Positions 5,940 through 13,910 are shown, counted from the stretch's first letter. The stretch: 64,000 nucleotides of DNA from Dictyostelium discoideum (GCA_000004695.1 CM000152.2:2528001-2592000), one strand, 5' to 3'. The notes: generated from the sequence alone by a model not told the origin. Made by a program: numbers and translations.

Positions 5940-7496
<1,557 letters not shown>

Positions 7497-7511
7497 ATAA
7501 TAAATAATAAC

Positions 7512-7570
<59 letters not shown>

Positions 7571-7701
7571 TAAAAAAAAATGAATAAAAATAAATAATAA
7601 TAATAAAGAAAATATGGTATATTATGAATTATATTCTTTTTTTTTTTTTTTTTTTTTTTTTTTTGGATTTTTTATTTTCTATTTTTTATTTATTTCTATA
7701 T

Positions 7702-8946
<1,245 letters not shown>

Positions 8947-9054
8947 TGTTCTATTTATTTGTATAACTCTTTATTACTCTTTATATAATTATAAATTAAT
9001 TTCAAAATAAAAAAATTAAAAAAAAAAAAAATGAAAAAAAGAATTAATTCCAAA

Positions 9055-9088
<34 letters not shown>

Positions 9089-9268
9089 AAATAAAAAAAA
9101 TAAAAAAAAAAAAAGTGAACATCAATTTTGTGTGATTTACAAAATATAAAAATTTTATCTTTATTTAGATATTAATTTTCCACCCAATGATTTTTCTAAA
9201 TGTATACTAATTTTTATATATTGATGATAGAATTAAATTAAATTGAAACCAATCTAATTAAACCAGTT

Positions 9269-9472
9269 TTGGTTTTTTTTTTTTTTTTTTTTGTGATATT
9301 AAAATATGGGTGTGAGTTGAAATTTATACTTTTTTTTTTTTTTCTAAAAAATAAATTTTTTTTTTTTTTTTTTACCTGTGATCAGACCTTCAAGGAATGT
9401 CCTTGTGTCTTTTCGGCGGTGTTTGTTAAACGGTTTTATTTTTATTATTCAATTGTATTAAATTTTTTAAAC

Positions 9473-9522
<50 letters not shown>

Positions 9523-10400
9523 ACTACTTAAATTGGAAGAGGGTTCGGAGCTGCTGGGGTTTGCCAGGCTTTGTTGAATTTGTATTTGTGAAGATCTTGA
9601 TTGGTGTTTTTTAGTATTGCTTCGTCGTGTTTGATTTTCTTTAGTGTGATGAATTTTTCAGTTTCGATGAGATTTAGTAATTCTGTTTCTATGACCTTTT
9701 GTTCGAATTTTGGCTCTGGTTTGCTTTCATCAGTGTTGAACAATTTGTGACAGATTATCTTCCATAATTGGTGTGCTATTATTCCTATGAGATTGGGGAA
9801 GATTCTCTCAGTTCTGTTGTATTTTGATATGTCTAAGGTATCCATTGACCATCTGTGGATTTTGATGAATGATAATTTGTTAACTGTTGATATGATGGTT
9901 TTTTCAATATCTAGGATATCTTGGCATAGAGTAAAAGGTGAAAATAAGGGTTTTTGAATAGGTGGCCGCAGATTTGGCATTTGGGTTCTCTTTCGGGGTT
10001 GAAACCTGGAAGTGATTCTTGAGAAGAATCTGAAGAGGGTGTTTCTACCTTTTTGGTGAGAAATGCTGTTGATGTTTATGAATACTTTGGGTATTGCTGT
10101 GTTGTATCTCACCGCCCATAACTTCTGCCATTCTGTTCTTCTTGGTGTTGGGTGTCTGTCTTTGATCATGAGTTCGTAAATTTCTTTCAGTTTTAGTGGT
10201 TCGTCATTGTCGTTTCTTATACAGTCTGGAAGTTCCTTTATCTTTGGATGGTTTTGGTAAAATTTGACTCTGAATACACCCCAGTGTCTGCACATATCGT
10301 TGAGGGTTGAAGTGTGGGCTTTTTTTCTACTTAATTGCTCCATGTACCATTCTTGTAAGGTATTGTTGTTGTTGTTGTAGTTGTTATGGAGTAGCCTTCT
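9269..10400 (-). mobile_element. 5'-truncated non-LTR retrotransposon copy A (TRE3-like), ORF2 C-terminal fragment plus 3' UTR with oligo(A)
   Basis: ORF 9528..10343 (271 aa) is paralogous to ORF 10990..11634, sharing HQKGRNTLFRFFSR and IFPNLIGIIAHQLWKIICHKLFN blocks. The cysteine/histidine motif expected at a non-LTR ORF2 C-terminus is degenerate here. The minus-strand 3' end has GTAGTAGT followed by an A run of about 36. It is one of three co-oriented copies downstream of tRNA-Ser. Confidence 0.6.
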
Positions 10401-10454
10401 AAAAAATAAATTTTTTTTTTTTTACCTAAAAGCGGTGTAATCTATTTTTTTTTT

Positions 10455-10555
10455 TTACCTGTGATCAGACCTTCAAGGAATGTCCTTGTGTCTTTTCGGC
10501 GGTGTTTGTTAAACGATTTTATTTTTATTATTCAATTGTATTAAATTTTTTAAAC

Positions 10556-10598
<43 letters not shown>

Positions 10599-10770
10599 AC
10601 TACTTAAATTGGAAGAGGGTTCGGAACTACTGGGGTTTGCCAGGCTTTGTTGAATTTGTATTTGTGAAGATCTTGATTGGTGTTTTTTAGTATTGCTTCG
10701 TCGTGTTTGATTTTCTTTAGTGTGATGAATTTTTCAGTTTCGATGAGATTTAGTAATTCTGTTTCTATAA
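10455..10770 (-). mobile_element. Short 3'-end fragment of the same retroelement, copy B
   Basis: Near-identical to 9362..9680 (3' UTR plus the last about 55 codons of copy A), with 2-3 mismatches seen directly. It is flanked by the recurring junction motif ACCTAAAAGCGGTGTAATCT. Confidence 0.6.
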
Positions 10771-10850
10771 GCGGTGTAATCTAAAAAATAAATGAAATAA
10801 TGCTTTTTTTTTTTTTTTTTTTTTTTTTTACCTAAAAGCGGTATATTGTT

Positions 10851-10949
10851 ATATTTTATTACATTTTTAAATTTTTAGATTTTTAAATTTTTAAATTTTT
10901 ATATTGTTATATGTTGATATTTTTGGTTATATTATGATTACTACTACTT

Positions 10950-10990
<41 letters not shown>

Positions 10991-11710
10991 TATAATGGAA
11001 TTGGGTTTGGAGTGTTCGGGTTATGCCATGATGTGTTGAAGTTGATTATTAATTGGTCTCTGTTATTTAATTTGTATATTGTTTCATTCCTTTCGATCTT
11101 CTTTATTAAAATGAATTTCTCTATTTTAATTAAGTTGGTTAGTTCTTTTTCAATTAATGTTGGATCAAATGAGGGTGGAGATTTAGATTCGTCTTGATTG
11201 AATAGTTTGTGACAAATTATTCTCCATAGTTGATGTATAATTATGCCGATTAAATTTGGGTAGATTCTTTCTTTTTTATTTGTTTTGCTAATATCTAGTG
11301 AATTGAGATCCCAATTTCTGATCTTGAAGAATGAGAGATTGTTGAATGTTGAAATTATTATGTTTTCTATTTCTTTTACTTGCATACAGTCTATAAAAAG
11401 GTGAGTGTATGGGTCACGGATTATATTGTTACAGATTTTGCATGGTACGTTACGTTCATAGTTGATTCCAGGAAGTGACCTTGAGAAAAATCTGAATAGT
11501 GTATTTCTACCTTTTTGATGTGATATGTGGTTGATATGTTGGAAGATGGATGGTATGTTGATGTTATTTATTGAAATTAGATTTTTTTGTCCATCTGTTT
11601 TTCTTATTGATTTGTATTTGTGAGTGATTAACATGTTATAGATTTCTTTAAGTTGAAGTGGCTTTTTGTTTTGACCTTTGATACAATCAGGTAGTGATTT
11701 TAGTTTATTG
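10851..11710 (-). mobile_element. 5'-truncated non-LTR retrotransposon copy C (related subfamily), ORF2 C-terminus with CCHC-like motif
   Basis: ORF 10990..11634 (214 aa) carries a Cys/His motif, PCKICNNIIRDPYTHLFIDC (CX2C...H...C), typical of non-LTR ORF2 C-termini. An A run of about 50 follows the stop. The truncated 5' edge lies about 90 bp from the 3' end of tRNA-Ser, matching the insertion preference of TRE3 elements. Confidence 0.6.
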
Positions 11711-11788
11711 TGTTGTGGTGCAAAAAATGAAATAATGCTAAAATAATAAAAAAAAAAAAAAAATATGTTTAATTTTTTACAATTAAAG

Positions 11789-11870
11789 TCGACATCGGCA
11801 GGGTTCGAACCTGCGCCCCCGAAGGGATCTGATTTCTAGTCAGACGCATTAGACCACTTTGCTACGATGT
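11789..11870 (-). tRNA. tRNA-Ser, anticodon AGA, 82 nt, class II with long variable arm
   Basis: The minus-strand sequence GACATCGTAGCAAAGTGGTCTAATGCGTCTGACTAGAAATCAGATCCCTTCGGGGGCGCAGGTTCGAACCCTGCCGATGTCG folds by hand into a cloverleaf. Acceptor stem GACATCG/CGATGTC; 3-bp D stem; anticodon stem TCTGA/TCAGA with loop CTAGAAA (anticodon AGA); variable arm CCC-TTCG-GGG; T arm GCAGG-TTCGAAC-CCTGC with the GTTCGAA B box; discriminator G. Confidence 0.9.
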
Positions 11871-11954
11871 CTTTGATTTAAAATTTTTAGATATCTAAAA
11901 AAATATTTGAAATATTTTTTTTTTTTTTTTTTTTTAAATAATAAATAAACAATC

Positions 11955-12000
<46 letters not shown>

Positions 12001-12029
12001 AATCATAAATAAAGATTCTTTGGATATTA

Positions 12030-13910
<1,881 letters not shown>

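Follow-up and report, generated by a model that had tools for sequence, protein, structure and literature searches.

Behind the only tRNA gene of a 64,000-nt stretch of Dictyostelium discoideum DNA (GCA_000004695.1 CM000152.2:2528001-2592000; called the window in the following) lie several fragments of non-long-terminal-repeat (non-LTR) retrotransposons, and this locus raises the question of how many insertions these fragments represent, to which family they belong, and what has brought them to this place. A preliminary description had proposed TRE3-type position-specific integration, with a co-oriented tandem array of three 5'-truncated copies on the strand of the tRNA. The architecture, tails, target-site duplications (TSDs), and distances described below all agree with this mode of integration and this arrangement, and we are highly confident that four independent TRE3-type insertions, all 5'-truncated, form a nested tandem array here, co-oriented with and downstream of tRNA-Ser(AGA). 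The three proposed copies A, B, and C are real and lie on the same strand, and a fourth insertion, D, had been missed. Two lineages contributed to the array: the A-type gave rise to copies A and B, and the C-type gave rise to copy C and to the 16-nt micro-copy D.

All window coordinates refer to the plus strand. For comparison, we used loci fetched from other Dictyostelium sequence (L001-L010) and protein models (P numbers). L009 is the counterpart of the locus in a second D. discoideum assembly (GCA_054883475.1), and L005 is the syntenic locus in a divergent assembly labeled D. discoideum (GCA_054859355.1). BLAST comparisons between copies were filtered, as poly(A) matches otherwise dominated them.

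The tRNA gene and the anatomy of the elements

The call of the tRNA gene, on which the preliminary description had relied, holds with both ARAGORN, which found tRNA-Ser(AGA) as the single tRNA in the window, and Rfam, whose score is to be compared with a threshold of 29 bits (Table 1). The B box of this tRNA (GGTTCGAACCC) is positioned 13 nt before the 3' end of the gene, and the 51-nt spacer that follows showed no external B box. The two long open reading frames (ORFs) of the flagged interval (9528-10343 and 10990-11634) are both encoded on the minus strand, as is the tRNA; transcription therefore runs in the direction of decreasing coordinates, which places the elements downstream of the tRNA and in its orientation. 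Protein homologues of the array ORFs were found in Dictyostelium species only. In the second assembly L009, the same tRNA-Ser gene is present at 2306-2387, the locus of array and tRNA is 99% identical, and the whole array is there.

Table 1. Features of the array and its surroundings in the window
Feature	Position	Strand	Details
Native intergenic DNA	9269-9341		outside the copy A TSD; roughly colinear with L005 12150-12185 and 12834 onward
Copy A TSD, distal	9342-9355		TTCTAAAAAATAAA
Copy A	9356-10396	-	5'-truncated A-type TRE3-like element; A18 tail plus 1023-nt body
Copy A, A18 tail	9356-9373	-	terminus ...CTGATCACAGGT at 9374
Copy A, internal A-run	9480-9519	-	
Copy A, ORF2 tail	9528-10394	-	
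Divergent 85-nt patch in copy A	9933-10017	-	over the CCHC knuckle; in comparison to L009 and paralogs
Copy A TSD, proximal	10397-10410		TTCTAAAAAATAAA; includes the distal TSD of D (10398-10410)
Micro-element D	10411-10440	-	A13 tail 10411-10423; body ACCTAAAAGCGGTGTA(A) 10424-10440
Copy B TSD, distal	10430-10444		AAGCGGTGTAATCTA, exact 15-mer
Copy B	10445-10768	-	A-type element cut to its last 312 nt; A12 tail 10445-10456
Copy B TSD, proximal	10769-10783		AAGCGGTGTAATCTA; abuts the first homologous base of B
D TSD, proximal	10780-10792		TCTAAAAAATAAA; exact 13-mer again at 10398-10410 and 9343-9355
Copy C TSD, distal	10790-10803		AAATGAAATAATGC on the plus strand, exact 14-mer
Copy C	10804-11724	-	5'-truncated C-type TRE3-like element; A26 tail plus 895 nt
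Copy C, A26 tail	10804-10829	-	terminus ...ACCGCTTTTAGGT; 3' untranslated region with internal A-run
Copy C, ORF2 tail	10990-11724	-	with intact CCHC knuckle
Copy C TSD, proximal	11725-11738		AAATGAAATAATGC; adjoins the base at which homology to longer C-type copies starts
Native spacer, 51 nt	11739-11789	-	separates the tRNA 3' end from the first target site; aligns with element-free L005
tRNA-Ser(AGA)	11790-11871	-	ARAGORN; Rfam RF00005, 61.5 bits, E 3.4e-12

The 3' termini of the elements were set from independent copies elsewhere, and the 5' ends were placed where the homology to longer copies begins. A-type copies end with ...CTGATCACAGGT-(A)n in L002, L003, and L010, and C-type copies end with ...ACACCGCTTTTAGGT-(A)n in L002, L004, L006, and L007. 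With these boundaries, each of the four elements has an oligo(A) tail of 12-26 nt and an exact TSD of 13-15 bp, which is the outcome of the search for duplications at each junction that had been suggested earlier. The 5' junctions of A and C permit an overlap of 1-3 nt. Copy B consists of the last 54 codons of ORF2 and the 3' untranslated region (UTR), and it has the same terminus followed by oligo(A) as the A-type copies mentioned above. The body of D contains the 16-mer TACACCGCTTTTAGGT, and the C-type copies in L002, L004, and L007 have exactly this 16-mer as their 3' terminus. The TSD of copy B is composed of 11 nt of the D body and 4 nt of the D TSD.

In both types, the 3' UTR contains, near GTAGTAGT, a long internal oligo(A) tract that is separate from the tail. 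In A and B this tract comes after GTAGTAGT, and in C before CAAGTAGTAGT, as had been noted for A and C in the preliminary description, and the difference is conserved in further copies of either type. It was this internal A-run that had been mistaken for the tail of copy C, which had been placed at 10851-11710. For copies A and B, previously drawn at 9269-10400 and 10455-10770, elements are indeed found there with the boundaries of Table 1, and the first 73 nt assigned to A are native DNA. The nearest element begins 65 nt past the tRNA 3' end (51-nt spacer and 14-nt TSD) and not about 90 nt, which is still within the published range of TRE3. The motif AAAAGCGGT, which had been suspected to be a target-site or 5'-UTR remnant, does occur three times (10424-10444, 10769-10783, and 10830-10850). 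It is the body of D, the TSD of B, and the true 3' terminus of C, respectively. It is thus in part a target-site duplication, and otherwise the 3' terminus of the C-type rather than a 5'-UTR remnant.

As merely 16-17 nt and an A13 tail are left of D, and as such extreme truncation is rare, D could in principle be the stump of a longer C-type copy that lost its interior by deletion. We regard this as very unlikely, because D is flanked on both sides by the exact 13-nt duplication TCTAAAAAATAAA, and a deletion would have needed to end exactly at the 5' copy of this duplication.

A second possibility is that the repeat formed by A and B arose from a single element by local tandem duplication or unequal crossing-over. 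The two copies belong to one type, are 99.0% identical over 312 nt, and are arranged head to tail at a distance of 1076-1083 bp. Such an event would have copied the flanks colinearly, however, and would not have made a new pair of poly(A) and duplication. Copy B carries a separate A12 tail and a separate exact 15-nt TSD, AAGCGGTGTAATCTA, which is unlike that of A, and its 5' end is an abrupt truncation inside ORF2. A duplication of A is therefore highly improbable, and we continue with A and B as independent insertions.

Chance duplications and the reconstructed empty site

As the region is AT-rich, we asked how often duplications of this length are expected by chance. In a first-order Markov simulation, 13-mers or longer repeats recurred often in the AT-rich region, and a generic count of repeats is therefore uninformative. 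The chance test was thus position-specific and was based on the collision rate of AT-rich 13-15-mers in the window, with about 25 boundary offsets per element. This rate is about 3-6e-4, and the probability of finding TSDs at four of four elements by chance is about 1e-7 or less. The TSD of copy B contains GC and is rarer still than AT-rich 13-15-mers. The TSDs abut termini that were independently set by homology to other copies.

Removal of the elements together with one copy of each TSD resulted in the pre-insertion site ...GCATTATTTCATTTATTTTTTAGAAAA.... The spacer of L005 is colinear with this reconstructed site across all four target positions. L005 has the same flanking genes as the window, with about 88-90% nucleotide identity, and no element at the site. 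The intergenic region lies between the gene with the 626-residue ORF and a gene with a PAC1 domain. From the L005 alignment, it also follows that 9269-9341 is native intergenic DNA. Neither ARAGORN nor Rfam (E<=0.1) detected a tRNA at the L005 locus. L005 is thus the only lineage without the tRNA and the only one without the elements, which is a single observation in the expected direction. Intermediate states of an insertion polymorphism were not seen, as L009 has the identical array and L005 lacks the tRNA altogether.

The comparison of the window with L005 revealed further differences. A 111-bp indel (window 11761-11881 versus L005 about 11985-12140) comprises the tRNA-Ser(AGA) gene together with its flanks, 10 nt on the 5' side and 19 nt on the 3' side, and is bounded by TAAAAATT(T) and TAAAAAATT direct repeats. 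In L005, a spacer of about 90 bp has undergone a local tandem duplication. In addition, about 650 bp of L005 (12186-12833) are missing from the window; they contain a palindrome of about 120 nt (12511-12631) with only sub-threshold matches to miRNA hairpins. This segment may be a small inverted-repeat element, or it may have been deleted in the window.

Distance to the tRNA gene in the window and at other loci

In the reconstructed site, the TSD of C lies 52-65 nt past the tRNA 3' end, those of D and A lie at 63-75 and 63-76 nt, and that of B lies at 72-86 nt once D is present. All four targets are hence confined to about 35 bp, at roughly 75-110 nt beyond the B-box start. TRE3 elements insert 40-150 bp downstream of tRNA genes and share their orientation, with the B box or else an external B box as the point of reference (PMC5911963), and the 52-86 bp measured from the tRNA 3' end fall within this range, so that the distance rule put forward in the preliminary description applies here. 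The distances observed for TRE3 span 14-305 bp (PMC5006619 Table 1), and tandems resulting from sequential targeting have been noted as well (PMC5006619 supplementary Table S2).

Elements of the same types were found 20-90 bp downstream of co-oriented tRNA genes at seven other loci. In D. firmibasis (L001), a homologue is located behind a co-oriented tRNA. Behind a tRNA-Val (L002), a C-type element is followed by an A-type element, with duplications 36-49 and 56-72 nt past the tRNA 3' end. Two tRNA-Ser(TGA) genes are followed by an A-type element (L003, duplication at 73-88 nt) and by a full-length C-type element (L007, 32-45 nt), respectively, and an intron-containing tRNA is followed by a C-type element (L006, 55-70 nt). 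Behind a tRNA-Met(CAT), the duplication of a full-length A-type element is found at 63-82 nt (L010), just beyond the external-B-box-like sequence GTTCGATTCC. The seventh locus, L004, is treated below. Altogether, a co-oriented tRNA was present 20-90 bp upstream in all of the independent loci in which the 5' end of the element is in view (8/8).

The elements thus have the features that characterize TRE3: an ORF2 with APE, reverse transcriptase (RT), and zinc finger (in both types, via relatives), an oligo(A) tail, no terminal repeats, a location 40-150 bp downstream from the tRNA gene, and an orientation shared with the tRNA (window, L001-L004, L006, L007, and L010).

The proximity to the tRNA could nevertheless be a coincidence if the elements simply pile up in AT-rich intergenic DNA or in one another. 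The spacer is very rich in AT and homopolymers and thus permissive for L1-like endonucleases, and later insertions could home to earlier copies, as B landed inside D. On the other hand, four events took place within 35 bp, the eight loci all have the co-oriented tRNA at the given distance, the tRNA association of the TRE3 family is published, and the tRNA-less L005 is without an element despite a very similar AT-rich target. We therefore consider a coincidence extremely improbable.

Two types of elements and their relatives

Copies A and C were originally described as divergent paralogs with ORF2 tails of about 50% identity that probably represent different subfamilies, and both statements are supported by the divergence that we measured: 50% amino-acid identity over 244 residues and about 66-69% nucleotide identity. 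Intact A-type and C-type copies share 61% protein identity. Because of this divergence, and because each type has its own 98-99.9% identical copies elsewhere, the sequence comparisons support the view that the A-type and the C-type represent distinct, recently active lineages.

With respect to the C-type, 243 of the 244 residues of copy C are identical to residues 906-1149 of the 1149-residue protein P0039, in which Pfam recognizes Exo_endo_phos (35.5 bits) and RVT_1 (127 bits). At the nucleotide level, copy C is 99.2-99.9% identical to the C-type copies in L002 and L004, and in L002 an uninterrupted 565-residue ORF links RVT_1 to the copy C sequence. The 214-residue ORF of copy C is identical to the AX4 models DDB_G0279773 and DDB_G0291069 and contains the CCHC motif CKICNNIIRDPYTHLFIDC. 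With respect to the A-type, copy A is 97-98% identical and copy B 98.7% identical at the nucleotide level to the A-type copies in L002 and L003. The L003 copy is in turn 98.4% identical to the full-length copy of L008/L010, and the ORF2 of the full-length L010 element contains Exo_endo_phos (37.7 bits) and RVT_1 (126.4 bits). A CCHC knuckle (CKIC...H....C) is found in C as well as in intact copies of the A-type; it is frameshifted in copy A of the window and intact in L009.

The full-length C-type element has 4.68 kb (L007 922-5597) and ends with A34, and the full-length A-type element has 4.75 kb (L010 about 6060-10811) and ends with A18. These full-length relatives carry two ORFs and a poly(A) tail, are flanked by duplications of 13-20 bp, and lack terminal repeats. 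When the window's own ORFs were searched with Pfam, no real domain was found; the truncated tails lie past the RT. A Forkhead match (20 bits, cut-off 27), which recurs in relatives, was sub-threshold and judged to be compositional noise. Exact-sequence look-ups of P0006 and of the neighboring 626-residue ORF gave no match, and related proteins are without exception publicly named either 'hypothetical protein' or 'reverse transcriptase domain-containing'.

The C-type copy of L004 is 99.9% identical to copy C, and the 5' truncations of the two agree within about 9 nt (window 11716-11724, L004 5905-5920) although the two copies follow different tRNA genes. It may be that truncation is favored at this point, or that the source transcript was itself truncated.

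A third TRE-like type was encountered in L004 (6812-12059), distal to the C-type copy behind the tRNA-Lys. It has 5.25 kb, a 314-residue ORF1, and a 1272-residue ORF2 with APE, RT, and CCHC, and its identity to the C-type in the zinc-knuckle region is only about 35%. An inverted fragment of this third type follows the array in L002 (12384-13499, minus strand). Its length matches the size class of TRE3-A and TRE3-B.

Proposed integration mechanism and probable order of insertion

We attribute each insertion to target-primed reverse transcription, in which the endonuclease of the element nicks the target, and the reverse transcriptase copies the polyadenylated RNA starting from its 3' end. An early stop of synthesis causes the variable 5' truncation, and staggered nicks give rise to the 13-15 bp TSDs. 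In TRE3, as taken from the literature, the integration site would be measured from the complex of RNA polymerase III factors on the B box. New copies would thereby wedge in beside the tRNA, and older ones would be pushed outward.

The nested TSDs permit a partial reconstruction of the order. D was inserted before B, which is proven by the TSD of B spanning the junction between the D body and the D TSD. If all insertions obeyed the distance rule, C would be the youngest, since the targets of D, B, and A are within the permitted window only without C, and A would precede B, since the target of A is within the permitted window only without B. The suggested order is thus A and D (either first), then B, then C. 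The TSDs of A and D coincide to within 1 nt despite the different lineages of these elements, and the simplest account is an earlier insertion of A, after which D cut the tRNA-proximal TSD again at the same distance.

A more far-reaching interpretation, which we consider doubtful, is that the array constitutes a stratigraphic record of a TRE3 ruler that measures from the tRNA with near-nucleotide precision, as would be seen from the A and D TSDs (TTCTAAAAAATAAA and TCTAAAAAATAAA), and that the landing pad is perhaps young. The latter idea comes from the 111-bp indel, which comprises the tRNA plus 29 nt and has TAAAAATT-like direct repeats, and from the lack of elements in L005. If the tRNA was the inserted party, the locus would show the arrival of a tRNA copy that then drew four TRE3 insertions.

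Several points weigh against the interpretation of the array as TRE3 insertions or limit it. First, the assignment to TRE3 draws on architecture, behavior, and host rather than on identity to a type sequence. Second, published consensus lengths are 5229 bp for TRE3-A, 5279 bp for TRE3-B, 4734 bp for TRE3-C, and 1559 bp (partial) for TRE3-D (PMC5006619), and the 4.75 kb of the A-type and 4.68 kb of the C-type do not map cleanly onto these values. Both full-length types are nearer to the length of TRE3-C than to those of TRE3-A and TRE3-B, and, speculating from lengths alone, one type of the window may be TRE3-C and the other TRE3-D. Third, the C-type copy behind the tRNA-Lys (L004) begins only about 20 nt past the tRNA and has no recognizable duplication. 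Fourth, the targeting mechanism of TRE3 is a proposal from the literature. Finally, the order beyond 'D before B' gains no support from divergence, as the private substitutions in the shared 312 nt, three in B and none in A, are not numerous enough for ordering the copies.

Comparison with other mobile elements

The TRE3 family of D. discoideum comprises TRE3-A (formerly Tdd-3), TRE3-B, TRE3-C, and TRE3-D. The elements of the window share with this family the host, the ORF2 with APE, RT, and zinc knuckle, the oligo(A), the variable 5' truncation, the TSDs, and the tandems formed by sequential targeting, and they do not differ from it in kind. Such an APE-RT-zinc-finger ORF2 and the oligo(A) tail are general properties of TRE elements (PMC5006619, PMC5911963). 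The related L1-like non-LTR elements of the TRE5 group (e.g., TRE5-A, also called DRE) are also targeted to tRNA genes and have the same order of ORF2 domains, but their integration sites lie about 50 bp upstream of the tRNA gene, and their orientation is opposite to it (PMC5911963). For TRE5-A, the dependence on the RNA polymerase III complex has been tested with a TRE-trap type of assay. As the elements of the window are downstream of the tRNA and co-oriented with it, TRE5 was ruled out.

Another element found downstream of Dictyostelium tRNA genes, as a case of convergent targeting, is Skipper-2 (DGLT-P), an LTR retrotransposon of the chromovirus type with an integrase, whereas the elements of the window have APE and RT, poly(A), and no LTRs. 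Skipper-2/DGLT was ruled out, as Pfam found only Exo_endo_phos and RVT_1 in the full-length relatives, which have poly(A) ends. DIRS elements, which are characterized by a tyrosine recombinase, inverted terminal repeats, and the lack of TSDs, were ruled out by the APE of the relatives and the clear 13-15 bp TSDs. In line with this, none of the ORF fragments matched an LTR or DIRS element; such a match would have contradicted the preliminary description. LTR elements typically leave duplications of 4-6 bp. The idea that B and the 3' part of A, as direct repeats of 312 nt, are the LTRs of an element such as Skipper-2, which uses a similar range downstream of tRNA genes (PMC5006619), can be practically dismissed even though two 99%-identical direct repeats flank about 770 bp, because these repeats include the C-terminus of ORF2 and a 3' UTR with a poly(A) tail, the relatives encode APE endonuclease and RVT_1 but no integrase, RNase H, or protease, the full-length elements of L007 and L010 end in poly(A) without terminal repeats, and the duplications of 13-20 bp are longer than usual for LTR elements.

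In their structure, the TRE3-type elements of the window also resemble mammalian LINE-1 with its poly(A) tails, frequent severe 5' truncation, TSDs of about 7-20 bp, and 1-3 nt microhomology at 5' junctions; poly(A), 5' truncation, and TSDs are all present here, as is the 1-3 nt overlap at the 5' junctions of A and C. LINE-1 is not known to have positional targeting to RNA polymerase III genes. Unlike in LINE-1, the sites in the window are set by the distance from the tRNA gene.

The locus therefore belongs to an already known and published kind of D. discoideum locus. It is a clean textbook case of tRNA-gene-targeted retrotransposition in a compact genome and has little import beyond annotation. 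What we add are the fourth element, the exact boundaries, the nature of the junction motif, the validation by an empty site, and a partial order of insertion. In this sense, the reading of nested TSDs gives base-pair resolution, exposes micro-insertions that are missed by similarity searches, and allows a partial relative dating.

A divergent patch in copy A

Within copy A, an 85-nt patch contains 11-12 substitutions as well as a +1 and a -1 indel, which compensate each other, in comparison to the paralogs and L009. All private differences of copy A fall in this patch, with none in the other approximately 660 aligned columns (p about 4e-9). The L009 sequence of the patch is canonical and in frame, and the rest of the 2.7-kb array differs between the two assemblies only in homopolymer lengths. 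In a search for a donor, no 14-mer match of the patch was found in the window or the fetched loci beyond positions shared with the canonical sequence. The patch is thus either a sequencing, assembly, or polishing artefact in one assembly or the result of a very local conversion, and the discrepancy flags a spot at which one assembly is probably wrong or local conversion occurred. Copy A is 82% identical at the amino-acid level to the AX4 model DDB_G0268528 over 288 residues, and most of the mismatches are accounted for by the 85-nt patch together with a second short block, about 20-30 residues long and located near query positions 27-52.

Gene models and minor observations

The AX4 models DDB_G0279773 and DDB_G0291069, both annotated as 'hypothetical protein', are transposon debris, and one of them presumably corresponds to this locus. 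The model P0008 (L002 10001-12433) splices a C-type RT fragment to the tail of the neighboring A-type copy, and the model P0013 (L003 6001-7090) crosses a tRNA gene. These two models are chimeras of transposon fragments, or of such fragments and tRNA flank, and are unfit to be regarded as host genes.

In L010 (1-1534 and 5906-10811), the A-type element adjoins two discoidin-I-like genes (F5_F8_type_C and H_lectin, 253 residues) and a second, inverted tRNA-Met. Tdd-3 is reported to have been first described near discoidin I genes, and we did not rely on this for naming. Finally, the 17-mer TTTTTCTAAAAAATAAA at 12080-12096, which holds the A/D TSD, recurs in the 3' end of the upstream 626-residue ORF on the other side of the tRNA, which is probably due to chance in AT-rich DNA.

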